Shown: positions 6,623 through 17,563 of the stretch, piece after piece
Numbering within the stretch: the first letter of the stretch is position 1
How the letters are laid out: each line of letters begins with the position of its first letter
Source: Pseudomonadota bacterium
Lineage (GTDB): Bacteria > Bdellovibrionota > Bacteriovoracia > Bacteriovoracales > Bacteriovoracaceae
NCBI GenBank assembly: GCA_027486525.1
Contig: JAIXOY010000112.1
Location: 1-17,563, forward strand
Length of the DNA stretch: 17,563 bases
Direction of reading: 5' to 3'
The notes under the pieces: generated by a model
Databases searched by the model: none
The model's input: only the letters and a program-made list of their open reading frames with translations
Told to the model about the DNA's origin: nothing
Made by a program: the position numbers and the translations under genes

Positions 6623-7234
6623 TTAAACTGTCTCAAGAAGTTGCAAGCCGCGAACGTATTTCGAGAAGCGACCCAAACGCCAAGGAAGGCAGCGGATGAA
6701 CTCGTCACCGAGCTTGGCCGCTTCGAGCTTATATTTTATCTCCAACACGGCGACGTAGTCGAAGTCCTGCCGCCAAAGATTTCTTCCGGCCGGGGAAAAT
6801 TCTATTCGTGTATCGAGTGTTACTCGTAAACCCCAAGCAGGTGCGTGGTAGTACCGGCGTTCATACCGATTTTCCAGCACGGGATACATGAGACATTCAC
6901 CCAATAAAACACCGTGGCCTTCGCGCAAAGAAGCAATCGCTGCAGCAGGATCGTAGAAGCGCTTGTCCCCATGATCCCCTAACTTTCGTTTCTCCTCGAG
7001 TTGCTTCCAGGCTCCCCCATCGTAGGAGCGCAGACGCCACTTCACGCGCGCCTCGTGGCCCGCGGTGTGGGCATGAAAACAGGCGAGATCCGGCGAATCA
7101 AAATACGCGTTATGCACTCGACGTGCTGGATACGCCGTCACAAGGCCCATGGGATGAGCGAGGAGAATGTTCTCAATCTGCTGGAGATCGCCAGATCCGA
7201 GAGGAATCTTCTTTTCGAAACGCCAGTCACTCAT
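6623..7234 (-). CDS. VTC domain protein (polyphosphate-polymerase-type CYTH-like domain, PF09359-like), cytoplasmic
   Basis: 203 aa from ATG 7232-7234; I reject the longer 7303 start. Motifs match what I recall of bacterial VTC-domain proteins: RFEKKIPL (R.E.K), YFDSPD, ARVKWRLRSY, LEEKRK, GLRVTLDTRIEF, LEIKYK, and C-terminal RFSKYVRGL. The start overlaps the stop of the upstream gene (ATGA at 7231-7234). Confidence 0.8.
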   Translation of the reverse strand: MSDWRFEKKIPLGSGDLQQIENILLAHPMGLVTAYPARRVHNAYFDSPDLACFHAHTAGHEARVKWRLRSYDGGAWKQLEEKRKLGDHGDKRFYDPAAAIASLREGHGVLLGECLMYPVLENRYERRYYHAPAWGLRVTLDTRIEFSPAGRNLWRQDFDYVAVLEIKYKLEAAKLGDEFIRCLPWRLGRFSKYVRGLQLLETV

Positions 7235-7887
7235 AGCGACCACCCTTCTGGCCAGTGGCCCCAGATGCGCCACTCGTTTGTCTTGGGATTCCAAACCGCC
7301 CACGCCGTCTCGTCGAGAGGGGGCAGTTCTTTTTCATGCATCTGCGCAAGTGCTACGAGCAGAGGCAACCGCCGCGACTGCCGAGACACCTCGATGCCAG
7401 CTGCACCTTTCCGTGCGAGCGGCCCTTCTCCATTTTGCAGAGTCAGAGTGAAGGGATGAGCAAACAGTGCGTAGTCTCCGACACTCTTCCCATTCACGAT
7501 CAGCGCACCCTGCGCGAGCGGTGCTGGCGAAGGGGTACGCAGCAGGACAGCGGCCTCTAGGCTTTGCGTATCAACGAGGATCATTTCTCGCTGTTCAAAG
7601 CCCTGGTCCTCATCAACCTCTATCGCAACCGCTTTAAGCCCGGGCTGGCCCTGCGTCGGAAGTGTGCGCATTAAGACCCGCAGGCGGTTCCCTGCAAACT
7701 CGAGTTCACCCTTCACCTCTTGACTGCGCCACTGAGAGTTTGTCCGAAGCTTGATATCGTCAAAGAGCAAACGCTGAAGCGAACGATGCCCTAGAGAAAG
7801 CGCGAATGAGGGAGCCGACTTTCCTATCAAGAAAATTCCCAACCCCATCAGCACAACACAAAAGACCGCAGCGAAGAAAAAGCGCAT
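7231..7887 (-). CDS. hypothetical membrane-anchored protein (N-terminal TM/signal anchor, extracytoplasmic domain), unknown function
   Basis: 218 aa, ATG 7885-7887. MRFFFAAVFCVVLMGLGIFLIG is the hydrophobic anchor. No motif I recognise. The start overlaps the DUF4956 stop (TGATG) and the stop overlaps the VTC start (ATGA). Confidence 0.6.
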   Translation of the reverse strand: MRFFFAAVFCVVLMGLGIFLIGKSAPSFALSLGHRSLQRLLFDDIKLRTNSQWRSQEVKGELEFAGNRLRVLMRTLPTQGQPGLKAVAIEVDEDQGFEQREMILVDTQSLEAAVLLRTPSPAPLAQGALIVNGKSVGDYALFAHPFTLTLQNGEGPLARKGAAGIEVSRQSRRLPLLVALAQMHEKELPPLDETAWAVWNPKTNEWRIWGHWPEGWSL

Positions 7888-8555
7888 CAGGCCAAGTCTT
7901 GATATTCGGTGATGAGCATTTGAACTCCCGGCAACTTCTCTTTGAGTCCTTGGCGCATCTTCTCGAGATTTTCTGTCGAGGAGGTTTCTACCAAGAAGAC
8001 AGCTTCCCCCTCGGAGATGCGTTTGATTTTTACCCGCCGGGAATGGGTCGCAAGAACGGCCTCAAGTTCCGGCACGGAGAACTGAGCGAGCTTACTCAGA
8101 TGAACGTAGAGAGCTCCGGGACGACTTGCCCCGCCGCCACGCACTTTGAGGAGCGCATACACAAGAAGAATCACCACAAGACCGATGACGGTCACGGGCC
8201 GCTGATCGGCGCCCAGACCAAGGCCCACGGCGATGGAGAGAAACAGGAATGAAAGTTCTTCGGGGTCTTTGATCGCCGTTCGGAAACGGACGACGGAGAG
8301 CGCACCGACGAGACCCAGGGAAAGGGCGAGGGAGGACTTCACCACACTAATGACGAGCATGGTGGTCATGGTCAGAAGAAAAAAGTTTCCGGCGAAGAGT
8401 GTGCGATGAGACTGGCCTCGGCCCCAGCGGGAATAGAGCAGCGCCATCAGCCCGGCCAGCACGCCAGCGGTTCCCAAGTTGAGGACAAACTGCCCGACAT
8501 CGATCTGCGGGGCCTGGTTGGCGAGAAAATCTTCAAACGTGTTAACAGCACTCAT
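7887..8555 (-). CDS. DUF4956 domain-containing integral membrane protein
   Basis: 222 aa, ATG 8553-8555 with a GAGGAG Shine-Dalgarno 6 nt upstream. Contains the DUF4956 hallmark LSLGLVGALSVVRFRTAIKDPEELSFLFLSIAVGLGLG and several TM segments. Confidence 0.8.
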   Translation of the reverse strand: MSAVNTFEDFLANQAPQIDVGQFVLNLGTAGVLAGLMALLYSRWGRGQSHRTLFAGNFFLLTMTTMLVISVVKSSLALSLGLVGALSVVRFRTAIKDPEELSFLFLSIAVGLGLGADQRPVTVIGLVVILLVYALLKVRGGGASRPGALYVHLSKLAQFSVPELEAVLATHSRRVKIKRISEGEAVFLVETSSTENLEKMRQGLKEKLPGVQMLITEYQDLA

Positions 8556-8561
8556 GGATCA

Positions 8562-8567
8562 CTCCTC
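8562..8567 (-). promoter_or_regulatory. Shine-Dalgarno GAGGAG for the DUF4956 gene
   Basis: Plus-strand ctcctc, 6 nt upstream of ATG 8553-8555 on the minus strand. The only junction in the cluster with a spacer (24 nt) also has the strongest SD. Confidence 0.55.
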
Positions 8568-8579
8568 GTGATTGATAAA

Positions 8580-9470
8580 TCATGGCAAACGTAACCACTC
8601 CGCGGCGATCCAAAACAGACGCGCCCCTAAGAGAGTAAAAATAACGGATTTGAACTGGGGTGTGGCATTCGTGAAAGGGGCCTTCGACCACCGCACGCAC
8701 TGAATGAGGCCCCAGAAAAACAGGAAAGAGAAGATCACATAGAGGATCGCGGGCCCGTTGGAAAAGCGATCGAGTTGGTTTTCGTTCCACAGAATAGTCG
8801 CCACTCCTACGTAACCCCAAAAGAGCATGAGCGCGCCCACTCGGAGGGCATGAGTGGCACCCAGGAGACTCGAAAAATTTCGCGCCGTCGCATAAGTGTC
8901 ATGGGGCTTCAGCTGAAAGATCTGCGTGGCGGCATAGCTCCCGCCGACGGTGAGCGTAAACAGCCAGCCCATCATCCAAGTGCGCGCACTGGGCTCGAAG
9001 CCTGAGATGGTAGCCCCGAGGATGACTCCGATCACCCCACAGCCAGTCGCATCTAAGAAAAGATCGACGCCGCCAACTTCTTTACCGCGCCACTTGAGTC
9101 CGGGGACGCGGCCTGAATACGCATACGAGAAAAGCAAGGCGACAACCGCGCAGCCGAGGGGATAGGTGCCATAGAACGCCGCCGCCACACATCCCAGCAG
9201 CATGCAAGCAACACCGAAGTGGCCCAGCCACTTCGGACGCGGCGGGGGATTGTCTAAGAAGTTCAAGGGACCGGCATCGCGGTCGACGTGCGTATTGAGC
9301 GCGCAGGTGCCACCGAAGAGAAGAACGCTATAGATCAAGAAGAGCGCCAGCAGATCCGTCGGCCAGGCCGCTTTATTCGGATTGAGCGCATAGCCCGTTA
9401 ACACAAACACAAAGCTCGGGAGAAATGTCTTTGGACGCATGTGAATGAAATAAAATTTCAAATCTTTCAT
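8580..9470 (-). CDS. polytopic membrane protein, divergent UbiA-prenyltransferase-like
   Basis: 296 aa, ATG 9468-9470 overlapping the upstream stop (ATGA). 8-9 predicted TM segments. N-terminal HMRPKTFLPSFVFVLTGY (UbiA-like RP..T start), NTHVDRDAG in the first loop (degenerate NDxxDxxxD), and a later HDTYATARNFSSLLG (degenerate second motif). Family assignment is tentative; the catalytic Asp motifs look eroded. Confidence 0.5.
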   Translation of the reverse strand: MKDLKFYFIHMRPKTFLPSFVFVLTGYALNPNKAAWPTDLLALFLIYSVLLFGGTCALNTHVDRDAGPLNFLDNPPPRPKWLGHFGVACMLLGCVAAAFYGTYPLGCAVVALLFSYAYSGRVPGLKWRGKEVGGVDLFLDATGCGVIGVILGATISGFEPSARTWMMGWLFTLTVGGSYAATQIFQLKPHDTYATARNFSSLLGATHALRVGALMLFWGYVGVATILWNENQLDRFSNGPAILYVIFSFLFFWGLIQCVRWSKAPFTNATPQFKSVIFTLLGARLFWIAAEWLRLP

Positions 9471-10354
9471 CGTTTATCCTTCAAGAAATACTGGCGAGCA
9501 CGAAAGAATTTTGATTCCTGGCCAACCTTCATACCACGCTCACTCACCAACAACGACTCGAGTTTATTCAGAAGCAACGTTCCCATCTCGCGCGGGCGGT
9601 ACTTGTTTTCGATTTCCAGCTCTTTGATGAGGAATTCTTCTTTGCCACCACTGGCTTGAATGAAACGGGCCTCATCCCACGAACCTTCCATCAGCCAAAC
9701 CCATGATGGATTTTTACGAAATACGGCAGGCACCATCAGTTCGTTCTTCTCTGAGTCTCTCAGGAGCAAGAGCGGAGAAACGCGTTCGTTACGATCAATC
9801 AGAATGTGGTAGCGCTGACGATGAGAATAGCCAAGAACGACAGGCCCTAGGCCTTTGGTTTTTAACTGACGACGACGCAATTCTTGGAACGGAGCGAGGC
9901 TCGAACTTTCTTTGCGTGTGAGCCACTGGGAAAGAAGGGCACCATCGGCGGCACTCACTCCTCTCTGAGCGACGTACCTCTCAATGATGTCGACGATGCG
10001 CACACCTGCCACACTCTGCTCTTTGAGGTTGCGTTCCTCTTCTTCGATCCGTGCAGCTCCCGGTGCTTCCATCTCCGATTTAAGCTGGATGACATAGGCC
10101 GGTGGCTGGTTCCCTTTGCGCACTCTTCGGATGCGTAATCCGAGTCCGGCCTGAGTCAGAACACCTTCAGGAGAATCGAAGTAGAGGTCTTCGGCGAGGT
10201 AAACATCGTGAGGCCAAAAACGAAAATCCCCCAAGAGAAAAGTTTCCTGAGGCAGAGGCTGATCCGCGGGGACCACATACTTACGTTGCTCTTCTACCCG
10301 ATTGGTAGCCGCCAGCACATTGAAACTCAGGAGGAGAAGAAGGATTCTTACCAT
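9467..10354 (-). CDS. secreted VTC/CYTH-like domain protein (signal peptide + divergent polyphosphate-polymerase-type tunnel domain)
   Basis: 295 aa from ATG 10352-10354; I reject the longer 10387 start, which would overlap the upstream gene by 40 nt. Signal peptide MVRILLLLLSFNVLAA/TN. Then RVEEQRKYVV, LYFDSPEG, GLGLRIRRV and YVIQLKSE parallel the RFEKK / YFDSPD / WRLRSY / LEEKRK of the VTC protein at 6623-7234. C-terminal SKFFRARQYF parallels RFSKYVRG. Confidence 0.6.
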   Translation of the reverse strand: MVRILLLLLSFNVLAATNRVEEQRKYVVPADQPLPQETFLLGDFRFWPHDVYLAEDLYFDSPEGVLTQAGLGLRIRRVRKGNQPPAYVIQLKSEMEAPGAARIEEEERNLKEQSVAGVRIVDIIERYVAQRGVSAADGALLSQWLTRKESSSLAPFQELRRRQLKTKGLGPVVLGYSHRQRYHILIDRNERVSPLLLLRDSEKNELMVPAVFRKNPSWVWLMEGSWDEARFIQASGGKEEFLIKELEIENKYRPREMGTLLLNKLESLLVSERGMKVGQESKFFRARQYFLKDKR

Positions 10355-11856
10355 CCGTACCCCCGGAACCGGCCACGCGTGTGCCACAGTCCTGCGGGAT
10401 AGAGTGTGAGATCCGGCTCGCGCACGAGCTCTCCGTTCTTCACGACGTCACCGATGTTGAGTTGGCGATTAATCTGCCACGTGTGAGGGTCTGAAACCTG
10501 AAAGGCTCTGAGAATTTGTCGACGACGCTCGGCGAGTTTGTGGAAATACAGTTCGCGCACTTCTGCGGGCCATCCGGAGTGCGAGAGAATTTCTCGCAGA
10601 TCATCCGGACCTAAACGAGCAATCTGCTTGGCCATCCACGCAAGATCGCTCCACGTCGCCTGGCGCCAGGCTTCCGGGAGATGGTTCATGCGAGCGAGGA
10701 AACGAAGCTCTTTTCCATCGTCCTCTACCAGATCCCAACCCAACTCATTCACCAGGCCACCCTTGAGGTCGCGCGGGAACTTCTCAATGCGAACTCCCAG
10801 CGAAACACCCAAGTCACTATAACTGGCCTTCATACCTTCAGCTGTGAGAGTGAGCAACGTGTTGTCGGTCTTCGTGTCCCAGTTGCCGATCCACATCTCC
10901 GCAAGGAGAGCTCCGCGCACAGAACGCCTCGATTTATTTTGTGCGAGGTCCGGCATGAAAGGCCCGAGGCGCGTCTCGGAACTCGGCCTTGGCTCCAACG
11001 CGAGTCCTGTGAAGGTGAGATAGGTCTCTCCCTCCCTTCCACGCAGCAAGGGCTCAATGGCAATCATCTCATCCGTCACGGTGCTGACCTGCTGGATGAA
11101 GGGACTCAGATTTATTTTGTAGCTGTTGTAGATAAAATTCACGAGCTGCTGAACGGTGCGCTTCTGCTTAGCTTGGCGACCCAACAGCAAACGGAGCTCG
11201 CCGGTTCCGCGATGAAAAGGAAAATCCACGTTAAAACCGAGAGAGGCAAAGATCCTCGAGGCCACGGGGTCACTATGAATCTCATCACCCCACTTGATCA
11301 GCCACCGTTCGCCATTACGAAGATCATCGGCGTGAACCTTCGCGACACTGCCCTTGCCTTCTAACTTATCAAGTCGCAGCCAAGAAAAGTCCGGATCCAC
11401 GCCAGCTGCTTTCCACTGGCGCTCAAAGGCCTCAGACAACGGAGCAACTGGGCTTTTCCAAAACGCATCGCTCTCGGCAGGCCGGCCATCATCAGGTGCG
11501 CGATTGAACTTTAAAAGATACGGAGAAAGATCGTGGGTCAACCCCATCTTGAGAATGTCGAGCAGGCCCACGCCGGCTTCCACACGATGGCGATCAATGA
11601 AGGAGTGGTAGATCAGATCGAGATTGTCCCACGCCACGGGATTGGGAAAATTGCCAGCATCGAAGGCCCGTTCTTGTTGCTCGCAGGTATCGCGAACAAA
11701 CGAGAGCATCACTGGTTTGCGCTCTTGCGTGAGCTTGCGACCTTCGGCTTCCTTCACATCCGTGTTCGTGAGCACTTCACAACGTGACCGCGATTCTTCC
11801 AGCGTGAGCGCTTGGGCGCTCAAGCTGAGAAAGAATAATGGCCACAGTCGCTTCAT
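10348..11856 (-). CDS. secreted protein with protein-kinase-like (PKL/Hanks-like) catalytic core; not CotH-like
   Basis: 502 aa, ATG 11854-11856. Signal peptide MKRLWPLFFLSLSAQA. Gly-rich loop LEGKGSVAKV (aa ~165-175), Lys in WLIKW (K188), catalytic loop WIGNWDTKTDNTLL (D327-x-K329-x-x-N332, the HRDLKPEN spacing), and DLG at 348-350. The kinase core maps to about nt 10800-11370. Confidence 0.65.
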   Translation of the reverse strand: MKRLWPLFFLSLSAQALTLEESRSRCEVLTNTDVKEAEGRKLTQERKPVMLSFVRDTCEQQERAFDAGNFPNPVAWDNLDLIYHSFIDRHRVEAGVGLLDILKMGLTHDLSPYLLKFNRAPDDGRPAESDAFWKSPVAPLSEAFERQWKAAGVDPDFSWLRLDKLEGKGSVAKVHADDLRNGERWLIKWGDEIHSDPVASRIFASLGFNVDFPFHRGTGELRLLLGRQAKQKRTVQQLVNFIYNSYKINLSPFIQQVSTVTDEMIAIEPLLRGREGETYLTFTGLALEPRPSSETRLGPFMPDLAQNKSRRSVRGALLAEMWIGNWDTKTDNTLLTLTAEGMKASYSDLGVSLGVRIEKFPRDLKGGLVNELGWDLVEDDGKELRFLARMNHLPEAWRQATWSDLAWMAKQIARLGPDDLREILSHSGWPAEVRELYFHKLAERRRQILRAFQVSDPHTWQINRQLNIGDVVKNGELVREPDLTLYPAGLWHTRGRFRGYGW

Positions 11857-12365
11857 TACGCACGGGCCCCACGGTAGTCCATGATCTCGCGGTTACCGAT
11901 GTAGCTGTACCCGATGAAGATCAGCACGAAGGCCGCATGGATGGGCCACCCGAGTTCTGCGAAACCATCGTACTGACGAAAGAAGCCCCAGGCGAAGGTC
12001 ACCGCCGTACCACCGTGGATGCAAATCCACATGATCATGTGAATGATGGTTTCTCTTTCCGTGCACCGTGGAAGGTGCCAGTGGATCTCGTCCATGAATT
12101 CGTGGAGGGTCCGTGTGACCCAGCAGCCCAAGAAGAGAAACAATGCTTGTCCAGGCCACCAGGTCATCAGCAAGAGTGAGAGCATCAGTCCGTAGCTGGT
12201 GTAAAGAATCATCCGGTGAGTGCGCAGCTCTCCGTCCGTGATGTCCTTTTTCCAAATCGCTAGATGCGTTTTGTGATCGAGGTACCAGAAGATGCCGAAG
12301 AAGAATCCGAAGAAGAGCATCCCGTAAGCGAAATGCTGTGGAGGAATTGCATCAAGCCATGACAT
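11856..12365 (-). CDS. hypothetical polytopic membrane protein with conserved His clusters
   Basis: 169 aa, ATG 12363-12365 overlapping the upstream UbiA gene by 14 nt. Stop TAA overlaps the next start (TAATG). ~5 TM segments with His motifs LDHKTH, LHEFMDEIHWH and IIHMIMWICIHGG. No family I can name. Confidence 0.55.
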   Translation of the reverse strand: MSWLDAIPPQHFAYGMLFFGFFFGIFWYLDHKTHLAIWKKDITDGELRTHRMILYTSYGLMLSLLLMTWWPGQALFLFLGCWVTRTLHEFMDEIHWHLPRCTERETIIHMIMWICIHGGTAVTFAWGFFRQYDGFAELGWPIHAAFVLIFIGYSYIGNREIMDYRGARA

Positions 12366-13161
12366 AAAACACCATCCTCGAGATAAAGATTAGCCCGCAC
12401 GTTGCGAGATTCATGTATTGAGTTGCGTAGTGGCCCGGCTCGCCCCAGCGAAGCCATTCGAGGTTCGCGGCACGCCAGACGAGAACCGCGATCCACGCGG
12501 TTCCCCACGGCACGGGGCAAAGAAGCAAAAGCAGACCGCTCAGGAGATTCAGCGTGTGAAGAAGAGCGTAGGTCGTGCGCTCACCGAACACGAGCGGCAG
12601 CGTGCGAGTCCCGCTCAACCGATCCTCTTCGAGATCATCCAAATCCCGCAGGACACTTCCGGCCATCACCTGCAGCGCCACGAAGCCTGCGACGATGTTG
12701 ATGTAGGGAGATGAGGTGTCGCCGGCACCCAAGTAGACGAGCATCGCCCAGCCCACACCGATCCAGGCACTCTTAATTCCCGTCAGAGATTTAAGACGAA
12801 AAGTTCCCGTCGCCGTGGCGAAGGGATAGGAGTAGGACAAACCTAAAAAGAGAATCGTCAGCGAACACACAAGCGTCAGCGGGCCCGGACGCAACAGGGA
12901 GAGAACGAGGCCCGAAATGAGAAGGGGGAGGAGCTTGAGTCCGGCGCGTGACTTCAGGGCATCCCACGGATGTTGCTCATCGGTGAGTGAGTCCATGCCA
13001 TAGACAAAACCCACCAGAGAAAAAGTGATCCACACCACCGACCAACTGGCGGCGAGCTCAACGCTCACGAGACTAAATCCCGTCAGCACGATGGCCACGG
13101 CCGCGGCCACGAGGATCCAGATGGACTTACGTCTCCAGAGGAGAAAATGTGATGCGAGCAT
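12352..13161 (-). CDS. UbiA superfamily prenyltransferase (MenA-like aromatic prenyltransferase fold)
   Basis: 269 aa, first gene of the minus-strand cluster. The strong second Asp-rich motif RDLDDLEEDRLSGTRTLPLVFG matches the MenA/UbiA NDxxDxxxD...G.KTL.V..G signature. 8-9 TM segments. Confidence 0.75.
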   Translation of the reverse strand: MLASHFLLWRRKSIWILVAAAVAIVLTGFSLVSVELAASWSVVWITFSLVGFVYGMDSLTDEQHPWDALKSRAGLKLLPLLISGLVLSLLRPGPLTLVCSLTILFLGLSYSYPFATATGTFRLKSLTGIKSAWIGVGWAMLVYLGAGDTSSPYINIVAGFVALQVMAGSVLRDLDDLEEDRLSGTRTLPLVFGERTTYALLHTLNLLSGLLLLLCPVPWGTAWIAVLVWRAANLEWLRWGEPGHYATQYMNLATCGLIFISRMVFYVMA

Positions 13162-13306: not shown

Positions 13307-14698
13307 ATGTTTTTGAAGCACTTCACTCTTGCGGCCCTCGTGGCGATCGTCTCGGGCCAGGCTTTTGCCTTGAACGAAGGTCTGCGCTACCACCTCAAAT
13401 CGCTGGAGCACGGCAAGGCCGCGGCCTATCGCTTTGATGGGACCTTACGCCTCACCGAAGACGGCTTCTTCCAGCAAAAACTCAGTCACGATGATCCCGG
13501 CTCGGCTTCCTTCGGTCAGCGCTACTTCATCGACTCAAAGTACGCCACTGCGGGCGAAACAGCTCCCGTGTTCTACATCATCTGCGGCGAGTGGAACTGC
13601 GACGGCACCGGCTCTTACTCTTCTGTTGAACGTCTCGCGAAAGAAGTCGGCGCGCACTTGGTGGCGCTCGAGCACCGCTACTACGGCGAAAGTTTGCCGT
13701 TCCGGAAGTTGACCACCGAACGTCTCTCGCACTTGAATCTTGATGCCGCGATCACGGACCTGGCCGTGTTCCAAAAACACGCCATGGAGACCATGAATCT
13801 CAAAGGCAAGTGGGTCGCTTTCGGTGGATCGTACGCAGGAACTCTTGCGGCGTTCTACCGTCTCAAGCATCCGGAACTCGTGACCGGCGCCCTCGCCTCT
13901 TCAGCACCTGTCTTGGTGAAAGCTGAGTTCAACGAATACGACGCACACGTGGCATCGGTGATCAACAAGAACACCTGCGGCGACATGGTTCGCGAAGCGG
14001 TCGCGGGCATCGAAGCTCGCATGGCGACCCGCGAAGGTACCCTCGCGGTGAAGGCACTCTTCAACTCAAGCGATGTGGTGAACGACGATGATTTCTTGTA
14101 CGTCGTTGCCGACATGCTCGCGGCCGCCGTCCAATACGGAAGACATACCAAGTTCTGCAACGATCTCGCTGCAAATCCAGATCGCGTCGCAGGTTACGCT
14201 CGCGCCGGCATCAACGTCTTAAGCTCCATGGGGACAACGCCGATTGAAATTTCCATGCAGGCCGCGGAAGCGAAAGACATCACACCGGCGAGCTACTTCC
14301 GTCAGTGGATGTGGCAGAGCTGTCTTGAGTTCGGTTGGTTTCAAGTCGCCAACGGCACAGGTGTCGATACGTCACGCTCAAGCCGCATCGATCTTCCGTA
14401 CCACGACCGCGTCTGTGAACGGCTCTACGGCCAAGGCACAACCGCTGATGGTTCCTTGAATGCCACTTGGTATGCTCCGCTCTTTAGCCCAAGCACGACC
14501 AACATCATCTTCACCAACGGCTCGAACGATCCGTGGTTGCGTCTCTCCGTGATCCCGGGAGTGCAGGCACCGAATCTTGATCTCTTGATGATCGATGGAG
14601 CTGCTCACTGTAATGACTTGAACGCTCTTTCTGCACTTCCGACAGTGCAAGCGGCGCAGGTTCGTTTCGGCGAAATTATTAAGGGCTGGTTGCTGTAG
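13307..14698 (+). CDS. secreted peptidase S28 family serine carboxypeptidase (Pro-X carboxypeptidase / DPP-II-like)
   Basis: 463 aa. Signal peptide MFLKHFTLAALVAIVSGQAFA. Catalytic Ser motif GGSYAGTLAAFYRLKHPEL (the GGSY.G.L.A..R.KYP of S28). Mid-region and C-terminal His region are consistent with S28. Stop TAG 14696-14698. Confidence 0.85.
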   Translation: MFLKHFTLAALVAIVSGQAFALNEGLRYHLKSLEHGKAAAYRFDGTLRLTEDGFFQQKLSHDDPGSASFGQRYFIDSKYATAGETAPVFYIICGEWNCDGTGSYSSVERLAKEVGAHLVALEHRYYGESLPFRKLTTERLSHLNLDAAITDLAVFQKHAMETMNLKGKWVAFGGSYAGTLAAFYRLKHPELVTGALASSAPVLVKAEFNEYDAHVASVINKNTCGDMVREAVAGIEARMATREGTLAVKALFNSSDVVNDDDFLYVVADMLAAAVQYGRHTKFCNDLAANPDRVAGYARAGINVLSSMGTTPIEISMQAAEAKDITPASYFRQWMWQSCLEFGWFQVANGTGVDTSRSSRIDLPYHDRVCERLYGQGTTADGSLNATWYAPLFSPSTTNIIFTNGSNDPWLRLSVIPGVQAPNLDLLMIDGAAHCNDLNALSALPTVQAAQVRFGEIIKGWLL

Positions 14699-16232
14699 GA
14701 AGAGTTCCGAGCCAGCTCTCCGGCTGGTCGCAATAAGCCGGACGTTGCGCACACGCATTGTCGCCGAGATCGCTGATCGAGTAGTTCACGCTGAAGCGCG
14801 CACACTCATTGTATTTTTTTACGGCATCCGGCGTGCTCTCGATCTGGCAGGGCCCGTTGATGATCCGCGCGAAGTGCGCCGGATGCAGCATGCTTCGTCC
14901 CATGGGTTTGTTACGGTAGTGCACCGTCGTGCCTTCGACGCGAAACTGCCCCTTCGGCACGCGGAAATCCACGGGCGTCATTCGCTGTGTGTGGAACGGG
15001 CACGCGTAGACCTTCCGTTGCGGCGAACTGATCGCCACAGCTTCCGGGCGCAGGATGTCGAGGTAATGCCGGCACGCGAGGTCCCCTTCCGGACACGAAC
15101 AGCTGAGCGTCCTGCGGCTCACACTTGTCGTCGTGCCGTTCGGCTCAAGCACCGGTTTCAAAAAGGACTGAACCTCGATTTTGTCGACAGTGTTCACGAG
15201 CAGCGTGTTGAACGGTGCATCGACAGACGTTGGTAACGGCACGAACCCGTTGTCCTTCTCGACGCAGTAGATGTCCTTGAGAGTCAGCGGCTGCGGAGGC
15301 CCCGCGACGACGAGTGGAGGCGCCCCCGCGATCGCCGGGATGACCGGTACCGTGGGAATCACCACGGGCGAGACCTCCGGATAACGCAGCGGCAGTCCCA
15401 CGCTCAACGTCGAGATGTTGCCGATCTGGAAGTACTTCTTGCGCATGAGCATCTCGCGCACAACCGGGTTCGGGCTCCGGAGGTGTGCCGTGAAGTCCGA
15501 TTCCACGGGGATCTCGCAGCGGCCGACCTCGCCGACGGAGTCGTCGAAGGCGATATGCATGCCATCGCCCATCATCGAATCGCCGGGGCCCATCGCCCGG
15601 CACTCGCTGGCGTTCACGTCTTCGCCGTTGTCTTTGTACTCGTCACACAGACCCGCGAAGTGCAGCAGCTCGTGGACGATGGTGGCGCAGTTGAAGTCCG
15701 AAGAATACTTCTGCGCATCCCCCCGTTCTCCCGGCTTGACGATCGTGATCTCGATCTCCGGTGGCTTCACGGAACCCATGGCCTGCGCCTGAGTAGGTGA
15801 CACAGCAATGAGGTTCAGCTGCTCTCCCCCGGGTCCTCGCAGGCCAGGCCTCGCAGCGTCGAGGCAACTGCGCACTCGATCCAGCATCGCTGCCGGTGTC
15901 ACCGTCGCGTCGGGGTTAGCGGTGAACTTGAGGTTGAACACCATCTCGTACTGCTTTTCACCGAGGTACTTCAGAGTGCCCTTGTGATCGGTCGGTAACT
16001 TGTAGTTGTCCGATCGGATGTTGCTATGGCTCACGTTTTCTTGCCGATGGGCCGACCGCACCATGCTCCCGCGGGTCACGTCGAAGACGCGAGCGTCGCC
16101 CGGCTTCGTGAGCGGATTACAGCGGTTGATCTCGTCGATGTCGGCGATCCAGTCGGTGGGGCTGATGGAATAGTTCGTCGAGCACAGCGGCTGCGCGTGG
16201 GCGAGCCCGAGGAAGAAGAGGAGAAATGTCAT
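14679..16232 (-). CDS. secreted Cys-rich zinc metalloprotease, snapalysin (M7)-like HExxHxxGxxD active site (paralog 1)
   Basis: 517 aa from ATG 16230-16232, which overlaps the upstream paralog stop (ATGA); I reject the 16388 start. Signal peptide MTFLLFFLGLAHA/QP. FNCATIVHELLHFAGLCDEY (nt ~15637-15678) is followed by a DSMMGDG Met-turn. I count 19 Cys. The C-terminal domain is shared with paralog 2 (LHPAHF). The 3' end overlaps the S28 gene by 20 nt (convergent). Confidence 0.7.
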   Translation of the reverse strand: MTFLLFFLGLAHAQPLCSTNYSISPTDWIADIDEINRCNPLTKPGDARVFDVTRGSMVRSAHRQENVSHSNIRSDNYKLPTDHKGTLKYLGEKQYEMVFNLKFTANPDATVTPAAMLDRVRSCLDAARPGLRGPGGEQLNLIAVSPTQAQAMGSVKPPEIEITIVKPGERGDAQKYSSDFNCATIVHELLHFAGLCDEYKDNGEDVNASECRAMGPGDSMMGDGMHIAFDDSVGEVGRCEIPVESDFTAHLRSPNPVVREMLMRKKYFQIGNISTLSVGLPLRYPEVSPVVIPTVPVIPAIAGAPPLVVAGPPQPLTLKDIYCVEKDNGFVPLPTSVDAPFNTLLVNTVDKIEVQSFLKPVLEPNGTTTSVSRRTLSCSCPEGDLACRHYLDILRPEAVAISSPQRKVYACPFHTQRMTPVDFRVPKGQFRVEGTTVHYRNKPMGRSMLHPAHFARIINGPCQIESTPDAVKKYNECARFSVNYSISDLGDNACAQRPAYCDQPESWLGTLPTATSP

Positions 16233-17563
16233 GGCCGCACCGCCGGTGCGCCGCCGAGGAACTTCACTGGATCGCGGCACTCCGCTGGCACGTTCGAGCA
16301 GTCGACGGCCGTGTCGGCGGGCTGCGAGTGGCGGTAGGCGAACTGCGCGCAGCGGTCGTAGAGCGTGGTGCGATCGATCGCACGGCACGAACCGCGCAAC
16401 ACGCGCATGAAGTGCGCGGGATGGAGCAAGCTACGGTTGAGGCGCGGGGGATTGCGGAACTCGACGAAGCCGGCGCTCACGCGCTCGTCCCGCACGGTTC
16501 CCTGGTTCATGCCCACGTCGCTGGCGCCGGCGTCCTGCGAACTCGTGGGACAGCGGAAGCGGCGGTTGCTCGCTTGGTAGCCTTCGTTCATCTTCGCGCG
16601 CACGCCGGTGATACTCGCCTGGCACTGCGAGTTGCCCGGGGGGCACTTGCAGATCAAGCGGTACTGCGACGGCAGTGTTTGGTAGCGTGTGACGTTGCGG
16701 CCAGCGAAGTCCATCTCGAAGCCGCGAGGTATATCCACGAAGCGCGCTCCGTAGGTCTGCAGCAAAGGCCTCTGGGCCGTCGCCGCAAACGTCGTGACCG
16801 TGCACCAATTTTTCTCAAACGCGGACTTGTCCGGCAGCGTCTTGTAGATGTCGTTGGCGTCCGGCGACATCTCCGCGGCGAGGTGGCCCGCCGGAGCGTT
16901 CAGCCACTTCGAGCCGGGGTTCAGGACGCAGCGCTTGGCGAGGCCGACGGCGTCGTCGTAGGTGCCCTGCATGTCCACGCTCATGATCGAATCTTCGTGC
17001 ACGATCACGCGACAGGCCGCCGCGTTCTGGATCTCCGTGGGATTGCCCTCGGGGTACTCGTCGCAGAGGCCAGCGTGGTGGAGGAATTCGTGGATGACCG
17101 TGGCGCACGAGAAATCCATCGAGAAATTGTTCGCGTTCCCGCGGCCACTCGTCTTGACGTTGATCGCAATGAGCGGGGGCTTCGGCGACTCACCGCTGTC
17201 ACCCCGGAGCGTGAGCCGCATCTGGTGGCCGTCGGGGCCGGTCATGGCGGGCGATGCTTGCGCAAAGCACTGCTCGACCCGTGTGCGCATTTCGGCGACC
17301 TGCGCCTCGGTGGTGTCGACGGCAGTGAACTTTGCGTTGAATTCGACGTTCCAGGATTTATCACCTGTGCGCCGAAGGACGAACTGACTGTTGTTGGGGA
17401 TCTTGTTCTCCGTGTGGCCAAGCTGGTCGTGGAGCACGGCCTCGCCGACGTCGGGGATCGCGCACGCCGAGATGTCGCTAAGACTTTGTAGACTCGAACT
17501 GATGCCCGAGTTGAGCAGGCCCTGCAACGGGAGTTCTGCGTCGAGACACGTCTCGCAGTCCGC
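16229..17563 (-). CDS. secreted Cys-rich snapalysin-like zinc metalloprotease (paralog 2), 5' end beyond window
   Basis: The frame stays open to nt 17563. The codon at 17525-17527 that the ORF track prints as M is TTG, not a credible start. FSCATVIHEFLHHAGLCDEY (nt ~17055-17096). Aligns with paralog 1 throughout (NVEFNAKFTA vs MVFNLKFTA; SLLHPAHFMRV vs SMLHPAHFARI). Very high GC3. Confidence 0.7.
   Translation of the reverse strand, partial: ADCETCLDAELPLQGLLNSGISSSLQSLSDISACAIPDVGEAVLHDQLGHTENKIPNNSQFVLRRTGDKSWNVEFNAKFTAVDTTEAQVAEMRTRVEQCFAQASPAMTGPDGHQMRLTLRGDSGESPKPPLIAINVKTSGRGNANNFSMDFSCATVIHEFLHHAGLCDEYPEGNPTEIQNAAACRVIVHEDSIMSVDMQGTYDDAVGLAKRCVLNPGSKWLNAPAGHLAAEMSPDANDIYKTLPDKSAFEKNWCTVTTFAATAQRPLLQTYGARFVDIPRGFEMDFAGRNVTRYQTLPSQYRLICKCPPGNSQCQASITGVRAKMNEGYQASNRRFRCPTSSQDAGASDVGMNQGTVRDERVSAGFVEFRNPPRLNRSLLHPAHFMRVLRGSCRAIDRTTLYDRCAQFAYRHSQPADTAVDCSNVPAECRDPVKFLGGAPAVRP

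Follow-up and report, generated by a model that had tools for sequence, protein, structure and literature searches.

A tandem pair of putative zinc peptidases with an Asp-ligand metzincin motif, from an uncharacterised family of Bacteriovoracia

The window, by which we mean the whole analysed stretch of 17,563 nt, ends with two overlapping genes on the reverse strand, to which all of their features described below likewise belong. The gene of paralog 1 (14679..16232) comprises 517 codons plus the stop codon, and its product, which starts with MTFLLFFLGLAHA followed by QPLC, is identical to P0001 and matches the family HMM with E 3.2e-108. Its start codon is backed by comparison with orthologs. 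A longer version of paralog 1, a GTG-initiated ORF of 569 aa with an Arg-rich, Tat-like leader, was rejected because of stops in the upstream frame, which is unconserved in the orthologous loci L001 and L003. The gene of paralog 2 (16229..17563; family HMM match with E 1.5e-101) is cut at its 5' end by the window edge, so that 444 of about 461 codons are inside; its orthologs P0016-P0025 have 455-461 aa, P0016 being 94% identical. The first-pass annotation, made from the sequence without database searches, had correctly stated that paralog 2 runs past the window, but only 17 codons are outside, and they code for a signal peptide, MKLFTILLLFAPLAWGA in the ortholog P0016. The further copies that it had thought possible upstream were rejected, since orthologous contigs carry exactly two family genes, with TrmO or a DLH hydrolase before them.

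The overlap of the two genes by ATGA (16229..16232), formed by the stop codon of paralog 2 and the start codon of paralog 1, had been recognised from the outset and can be read directly in the sequence (...CGG CCA TGA / ATG ACA...). It is also present in L001 and L003 and suggests translational coupling of paralogs 2 and 1. Conservation of the 4-nt overlap in orthologs makes co-transcription of the pair, initially taken as given, plausible. Scans for promoters and terminators between 14300 and 17563 yielded no sites, and an Rfam scan of the window gave no match. In BLASTP comparisons, the two proteins share 38% identity in the N-terminal 175 aa (E 9e-34) and 32% in the C-terminal 147 aa (E 2e-17); judged from these alignments, their paralogy is far above chance. 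The description of the pair as GC-rich also holds, with a GC content of 0.61/0.65 and a GC3 of 0.79/0.85 compared to 0.52-0.58 and 0.54-0.71, respectively, in 13 other window genes. The convergent neighbour (13307..14698, forward strand), assigned by Pfam (PF05577, E 2.7e-72) and synteny, codes for a secreted serine peptidase of the S28 family and overlaps paralog 1 by 20 nt at its 3' end. An S28 gene is conserved beside a family gene in 8 loci; the S28 peptidase is context and outside the operon.

Residues 1-13 of paralog 1 (MTFLLFFLGLAHA, 16194..16232) constitute a putative signal peptide with an AxA motif before Q14, where cleavage would be expected. It is unusually short (13 aa) and has no charged or basic n-region; short hydrophobic N-termini with AxA recur across the family. 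With 16 Cys in paralog 1 and 17 in paralog 2, of which 13-16 are conserved, the proteins are indeed as Cys-rich as had been remarked, and from these features of the sequences we infer Sec export and disulfide bonds for both. Covariation in presence and absence of Cys columns was confined to 241-247 and the group 239/323/378/411, and picked out no partner for C196, which is Cys in 71%. Neither a prodomain nor an element that would confer latency was identified.

Both proteins contain a predicted zinc-binding motif, HELLHFAGLCDEY in paralog 1 (15636..15674; residues 187-199, H187-E188-L-L-H191-F-A-G194-L-C-D197-E198-Y199) and HEFLHHAGLCDEY in paralog 2 (17054..17092; residues 158-170 of the window translation). 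The sequence check agrees with the HExxHxxGxxD followed by EY noted earlier in both paralogs, and HELLHFAGLCD (paralog 1) and HEFLHHAGLCD (paralog 2) conform to the metzincin motif, defined as HExxHxxG/NxxH/D (PMC12237041). The putative Met-turn of paralog 1 is S219-M220-M221 (15570..15578) within the DSMMGDG element (residues 218-224), and that of paralog 2 is DSIMS (16979..16993; residues 191-195). We counted conservation over 142 diverse family representatives that are about 25% identical: H187, E188, H191, L195, D197, E198, C211, R212 and M221 were unchanged in all 142, G194 and Y199 were kept in 141, and position 219 was S, T or N. The resemblance of DSMMGDG to a Met-turn, first seen in paralog 1 only, is thereby strengthened by an invariant Met, and the turn itself stays putative. 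D197 and the Met are separated by 23 residues in paralog 1 and typically by 19-32 in the family. A weak alignment with the metzincin EcxA pairs HExxHxxGL, CR and SIM, so that the putative Met-turn aligns with SIM.

In the confident AF2 model of paralog 1 (pLDDT 86.7, pTM 0.85), a metzincin-like catalytic core is formed by about residues 38-240 (15513..16121), with the predicted order of strands, a backing helix (113-130), further strands, the active-site helix (182-191) with HELLH at its end, the Met-turn and a helix at 225-233. The prediction thus comprises the upper sheet with backing and active-site helices and the lower subdomain closed by a C-terminal helix that define the metzincin fold, of which a Met-turn, the C-terminal helix and a Tyr switch two residues past the ligand are described as features (PMC12237041). 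The original proposal of a metzincin-type site with Asp as third ligand is consistent both with the invariance of the motif in 142 homologs and with the helical position of HELLH; absence of the fold, a non-helical HExxH and homologs devoid of the motif, which the first-pass annotation had named as grounds for abandoning it, were not what we found.

The region after the core was initially regarded as a single fused domain of ~200 aa, shared by both copies. Its presence in both is evident from LHPAHF, which marks the start of the C-terminal tail of paralog 2 at 16409..16426 and occurs in paralog 1 as well, and from CARF in paralog 1 and CAQF in paralog 2, but a single domain is contradicted by minimal homologs (P0033, P0032), in which only 11-19 residues separate the Met-turn from a SLLxPxHF...C...C...C...C tail. 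This indicates that the tail goes with the catalytic core and that the ~180-aa stretch between them is an inserted module. In paralog 1, the Cys-stapled helical tail (SMLHPAHFARIINGPC...YNEC...C...C...WLG) spans residues 446-517 (14682..14897). No homolog lacked it, even among the minimal ones; C462, C477, C494 and C501 were kept in at least 97%, and L449, P451, F454, G460 and Y474 were conserved as well. LHPAHF is specific to a subfamily, and its interpretation as a second (HxxH) metal site was rejected on the poor conservation of its His residues (H450 is His in 46 of 142; H453 is His in 108 of 142 and Gln in 31). The main part of the family-specific module (residues 317-445; 14898..15284) is predicted to consist of a four-stranded antiparallel sheet, a long helix (385-402) and a beta-hairpin. 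It is preceded by a Pro/Val-rich linker (residues 280-316; 15285..15395) with a pLDDT of 62-69, which is confined to the closest orthologs and replaced by gaps in most aligned homologs.

When both proteins and 80 family members were scanned against Pfam and NCBIfam, all matches stayed below threshold; sequence and profile searches of the PDB returned nothing beyond EcxA at E 0.19, and a Foldseek search of the PDB with the full model found nothing at E<=0.001. The novelty claimed at first is upheld in the sense that these resources contain no curated family and no solved structure that matches either the family or its C-terminal parts. The weak signals (astacin, M64, M6 and EcxA) all fall on the stretch from the zinc motif to the Met-turn. 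Astacin (PF01400) was matched by 3 of the 80 members over profile positions 79-162 of 189 (best E 3.5e-4), with a best score of 20.7 bits that is below the cut-off of 22.5 and does not place the family among the astacins. In astacins (M12A; motif HExxHxxGFxHExxRxDRD), as in ulilysin and pappalysins (M43) and in adamalysins and ADAMTS (M12B), the third ligand is His instead of the Asp of the pair; their N- and C-terminal elaborations are also unlike those of the pair, and no match to them was above threshold. Among enzymes with Asp, those of M6 also have D-E-Y past the Gly (HExxHxxGLPDEY). The M6 models left only traces near the motif that do not establish membership, TIGR03296 of NCBIfam at residues 170-205 (E 0.12; 12.3 bits, with the cut-off at 110.8) and PF05547 of Pfam, with a single hit among the 80 members (E 0.01). 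M6 enzymes are large, multidomain and secreted, and thuringilysins and immune inhibitor A (PDB 4YU5) share the Asp as third ligand with the pair (PMC12237041). PF09471 (M64) was matched by 2 of 80 members with a best E of 0.0063, which likewise does not assign the family to M64, and igalysins have an extra residue (HExxHxxxGxxD), whereas the pair is spaced HExxHxxGxxD. In the M64 IgAse of Thomasclavelia ramosa (PDB 9QA6/9QDH), D550-E551-Y552 parallels D197-E198-Y199, and a long 'connecting segment' ahead of the Met-turn and Cys in the lower subdomain are further points of likeness (PMC12237041). Taken as a whole, the pair is a family-level variant inside the known metzincin clan, a new branch and no new kind of system.

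The zinc site had originally been called snapalysin-type (M7). That the paralogs are true snapalysins that gained a C-terminal domain by fusion is extremely improbable, since Peptidase_M7 (PF02031) matched neither paralog at E<=1 nor any of the 80 members at E<=0.1, and the PDB sequence and profile searches missed snapalysin although its structures (1KUH/4HX3) are in the PDB. The Streptomyces small neutral protease has ~130 aa in one domain and no Cys, compared to 461-517 aa and 16-17 Cys in the pair. In snapalysin, a single helix follows the third ligand and the Met is roughly 10 residues on (PMC3890501), whereas the pair has the longer ligand-to-Met segment of 19-32 residues seen across its family, about 300 residues after the Met, and, as additions, the ~180-aa inserted module and the Cys-stapled tail. 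The hosts also belong to different phyla, Bacteriovoracia, which include the predatory host of the pair, taking the place of Streptomyces. The lack of any match to a curated family could instead be read as a sign of zincin-fold proteins devoid of catalysis (binding proteins or adhesins, for instance) or of an incidental HExxH. We consider this very unlikely, because the H, E, H, D and M are absolutely invariant in 142 sequences at about 25% identity; such invariance points to selection on catalysis, as pseudo-enzymes normally lose these residues.

Whether the two proteins act separately is a different matter. The gene order is strictly kept in orthologs, with the 461-aa type followed by the 488-521-aa type, which together with the 4-nt overlap implies stoichiometric co-expression. 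The syntenic relative L008 has one family copy between TrmO and S28, indicating that the duplicates have been retained as a pair ever since the duplication. In a sister subfamily, a dedicated secreted partner of ~195 aa is encoded after each protease gene, so accessory proteins exist in the family; a homolog of this partner gene was not found in the window. These observations would suit a pair that works as one unit, either as heterodimer or as an enzyme with a regulatory or chaperoning paralog. All catalytic residues are kept in both paralogs, however, which is consistent with two active enzymes that differ in specificity, and 3-copy tandem arrays elsewhere resemble simple gene amplification, leaving the single unit a rather unlikely explanation.

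We consider it probable that the two genes are translationally coupled and code for zinc endopeptidases that are exported by Sec, stabilised by disulfides and members of a family, so far uncharacterised, within the metzincin clan. The conservation of the motif, the predicted fold, the distribution among taxa and the organisation of the genes are results of the analysis; the metal binding, catalysis, export route, disulfides and biological role that we infer from them can be outlined in the numbering of paralog 1. His187, His191 and Asp197 of HExxHxxGLxD would bind the catalytic zinc, Glu188, as general base, would activate the water bound to the zinc, and Tyr199, whose position two residues past the Asp is shared by snapalysin and IgAse, may serve as 'tyrosine switch' to stabilise the transition state. 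Met221 would form the Met-turn below the metal site, and the helical tail of ~55-70 residues, pinned by its four conserved Cys, may complete the lower subdomain. The inserted module of ~180 residues, between the Met-turn region and the tail, probably shapes substrate access or binding.

At a threshold of E<=1e-3, the family comprises 1037 representative clusters at 50% identity, and its named members are all "hypothetical". When the clusters of 20 representatives were looked up, the labels were confined to 'hypothetical protein', one Halobacteriovoraceae MAG and some from Tara Oceans. All 17 genome loci, collected by scanning with a single narrow peptide pattern, belong to Bacteriovoracaceae, Halobacteriovoraceae or Bdellovibrionota MAGs. 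A word-index homolog search with an 80-sequence alignment detected no relatives beyond the known close ones and so added no taxonomic names, and literature searches on metzincins in Bdellovibrio and metalloproteases in Halobacteriovorax turned up nothing on the family, which appears to be lineage-specific to Bacteriovoracia. Bacteriovoracia are obligate predators of Gram-negative bacteria. The expansion of the family in these predators, often in tandem (arrays of 2-3 copies in 7 further loci), makes a role in protein degradation likely, either extracellularly or in the prey periplasm.

Metzincins are among the best-studied protease clans, and the family overturns no concept; new structural families of metzincins are still described one by one, the igalysin IgAse, for instance, reportedly in 2025. 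As a wider and tentative proposal, possible but on balance doubtful, an unrecognised family of Asp-ligand metzincins, confined to Bacteriovoracia and with ~1000 clusters (50% identity), would have its core interrupted by a module whose fold is novel and completed by a four-Cys tail, with co-translated pairs acting heteromerically or regulating each other on prey envelope proteins, and likewise the cassettes of protease and 195-aa partner in the sister subfamily. If true, it would join the few metzincins with Asp ligands, known from snapalysins, thuringilysins and igalysins (PMC12237041). The family of ~1000 clusters combines this rare version of the site with two unmatched structural add-ons and has neither a Pfam or NCBIfam model nor a solved structure. 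The secreted hydrolases of Bacteriovoracia are of interest because they bear on how prey is killed and because antibacterial enzymes could be drawn from them, and definition of the family would improve the annotation of Bacteriovoracia genomes and provide testable candidates for predation factors.

Two minus-strand genes for putative metzincin-like proteases fill the final 2.9 kb of the window, paralog 1 (14679-16232, 517 aa, N-terminus MTFLLFFLGLAHA followed by QPLC) and paralog 2 (16229-17563, 444 codons within the window and open at its end), with the stop codon of paralog 2 and the start codon of paralog 1 overlapping as ATGA at 16229-16232 on the minus strand. In BLASTP, the two proteins aligned in an N-terminal stretch of 175 residues (38% identity, E 9e-34) and in a second stretch made up of the C-terminal 147 residues (32% identity, E 2e-17); they contain 16 and 17 Cys, respectively. 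Together with a re-reading of the sequence, these alignments confirmed the tandem, overlapping, Cys-rich and GC-rich genes with shared motifs described in the first-pass annotation. A 569-aa ORF with GTG start was rejected as the paralog 1 gene because the upstream frame contains stop codons in orthologs and is not conserved, unlike the ATG start and the ATGA overlap. GC content (0.61/0.65) and GC3 (0.79/0.85) of the protease pair exceed those of the 13 other window genes (0.52-0.58 and 0.54-0.71, respectively), a possible sign of codon bias in highly expressed genes, or of a recent transfer or conversion event. The GC contrast recurs in the homologous locus L001 (8619-11554, 0.623 versus 0.531) and is absent in L003 (0.585 versus 0.577). 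The antisense strand of both genes contains long ORFs, the largest of 421 aa (16226-17491, 14745-15236 and 15415-15792, plus strand). They are Arg/Ala-rich and recur opposite orthologs, as GC-rich codon usage would predict, and we judge them to be non-coding artefacts.

Both proteins carry an extended zinc motif, HELLHFAGLCDEY at residues 187-199 of paralog 1 (numbering used throughout) and HEFLHHAGLCDEY in paralog 2, with DSMMGDG (residues 218-224) and DSIMS, respectively, downstream, and LHPAHF and CA(R/Q)F towards the C-terminal end. When conservation was scored over an alignment of 142 diverse representatives, which are ~25% identical to paralog 1, H187, E188, H191, L195, D197, E198, C211, R212 and M221 were invariant, G194 and Y199 were present in 141, and position 219 was S, T or N. 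D197-E198-Y199 are canonically spaced, and the invariant Met follows 19-32 residues downstream across the family. Defining features of metzincins are the motif HExxHxxG/NxxH/D, a Met-turn and a C-terminal helix (PMC12237041). Asp is a rare third ligand, known from snapalysins, thuringilysins and igalysins (PMC12237041). According to the same source, the position next to this ligand is 'family-specific', and a Tyr at ligand +2 can serve as a tyrosine switch, as in snapalysins, astacins and IgAse (D550-E551-Y552). Judged by homology and conservation, zinc would be bound by H187, H191 and D197, with E188 as putative general base, Y199 assisting catalysis and M221 underlying the site, and the active site may work like that of Asp-ligand metzincins. 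C196, just before the Asp ligand (GLCDEY; window 15645-15647), is Cys in only 71% of the aligned members and Val, Ala, Gly or Ser in the remainder; no other Cys column of the alignment co-varies with it. This Cys may pair in a disulfide or act as a free thiol beside the zinc site.

Neither paralog matched a Pfam model, the sole NCBIfam trace was the M6 domain TIGR03296 (E 0.12, residues 170-205), and PDB sequence and profile searches returned nothing except EcxA (E 0.19). A word-indexed homolog search found only 15-22 relatives. When a profile built from 34 sequences was run exhaustively with HMMER against 1.84 billion cluster representatives, 1037 proteins scored E ≤ 1e-3, of which 604 reached E ≤ 1e-30; many of these hits are 700-850 aa long and carry a ~400-aa N-terminal extension. 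The AF2 model of paralog 1 on the family alignment was confident (pLDDT 86.7, pTM 0.85). In it, helix 182-191 ends with HELLH and follows strands, a long helix (113-130) and further strands. This predicted order is as expected of a metzincin upper subdomain and supports a metzincin fold; Foldseek with the model against PDB gave nothing significant. In a Pfam scan of 80 members, all matches were subthreshold and sporadic (Astacin 3, M64 2, M6 1, M7 0), and the best Astacin match (E 3.5e-4) spanned profile positions 79-162, from zinc motif to Met-turn. Each weak alone, these signals and the invariant extended motif agree in placing the family in the metzincin clan and in none of its described families; membership of M7, M6, M64 and M12A was tested for each and rejected. 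Of the snapalysin-type site proposed initially, the invariant Asp-ligand motif with HELLH in a helix was retained, but the M7 profile matched none of the 80 members.

The C-terminal region of ~200 aa, initially described as one shared novel domain, is indeed conserved between the paralogs and family-wide, but it resolves into two parts. From the Met-turn to the motif SLLxPxHFxRIxxGxC, 140 of the 142 representatives have 167-257 residues (median 180); two homologs, P0033 (260 aa) and P0032, span this interval with just 11 and 19 residues, respectively. Every member has the terminal ~55-70 residues, including four conserved Cys (462, 477, 494 and 501). Given these minimal proteins and the universal tail, we infer that the tail belongs to the catalytic lower subdomain and that the intervening piece is an inserted module. 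Modelling residues 317-517 alone lowered pTM to 0.58 at pLDDT 88, which is consistent with this reading. Residues 280-316 of the paralog 1 insert form a Pro-rich linker that is limited to close orthologs. A metal-binding role of LHPAHF was rejected, since just 46 of the 142 representatives have His at position 450; at position 453, 108 have His and 31 have Gln.

Orthologs of paralog 2 have 455-461 aa, and the closest, P0016, is 94% identical and starts with MKLFTILLLFAPLAWGAADCETCLD; therefore only 17 codons, encoding the signal peptide, lie beyond the window. The suggestion of more copies upstream found no support, as the longer orthologous contigs L001, L003 and L004 each carry two family genes and no more, again overlapping by 4 nt. 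TrmO or a DLH hydrolase precedes this pair, and a convergent S28 serine peptidase follows it, along with the same UbiA/DUF4956/VTC genes that the window has. In the more distant syntenic relative L008, a single family gene lies between TrmO and S28, indicating that the pair arose by local duplication and was kept since. The secreted S28-family peptidase of the window (13307-14698, plus strand) overlaps the 3' end of paralog 1 by 20 nt, and this adjacency is kept in eight loci, including L008 with its single-copy, ~31% identical family gene. A same-strand run at 6623-13161 (minus strand), conserved in L001, L003 and L008 too, encodes two UbiA-like proteins, one of them a prenyltransferase, a VTC-domain protein, DUF4956, a protein with a weak CYTH-domain match, a 218-aa protein, and proteins of 169 and 502 aa for which Pfam had no match. 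VTC, CYTH and DUF4956 in combination would tentatively point to chemistry involving polyphosphate.

In loci of the long subfamily (proteases of about 510-810 aa), one or two copies of a conserved ~195-aa secreted ORF lie downstream of most protease genes, often overlapping the end of the protease gene (L013 7230-7844; L018 7287-7880; L011 1939-2556; L015 8863-9468, 9537-10148 and 11742-12350; L012 11440-12024 and 12080-12697; L014 2716-3309; L019 7095-7679). Its product has the motifs SxPEG..Q.F, SNFFD and GSSFN and a C-terminal part with two Cys that ends in G.I[YF]VE; it lacks a Pfam or PDB match and is possibly a cognate inhibitor or chaperone; the ORF is absent from the window and L001-L008. 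These loci also contain a separate, conventional metzincin-like ORF (HELGHLLGLSH ... SMFY; L013 152-1873, plus strand) three genes upstream from the family gene and beside a Lon protease, probably by plain synteny.

A short hydrophobic leader stands at the N-terminus of every family member, and that of paralog 1 has A-H-A before Q14 and no lipobox; leaders and 13-16 conserved Cys suggest Sec export and oxidative folding. A genome-collection scan with one narrow pattern, [LM]H[HFY][AL]GLCDE, gave 17 confirmed loci, all from MAGs with the labels Bacteriovoracaceae, Halobacteriovoraceae, Bacteriovorax, Bdellovibrionota or, in two cases, 'Proteobacteria'. The only named family protein is from a Halobacteriovoraceae MAG, every source label reads 'hypothetical protein', and a literature search found no paper on the family. 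With the family HMM, tandem arrays were also detected among the ORFs of other loci from this set (three copies in L012 and L015; two in L005, L006, L009, L013 and L018). The two paralogs may act as two enzymes or as a complex. Although not conceptually surprising, the family should interest structural biologists working on metallopeptidases and researchers of predatory bacteria, for which, considering their lifestyle, it most likely represents a diversified set of secreted proteases.
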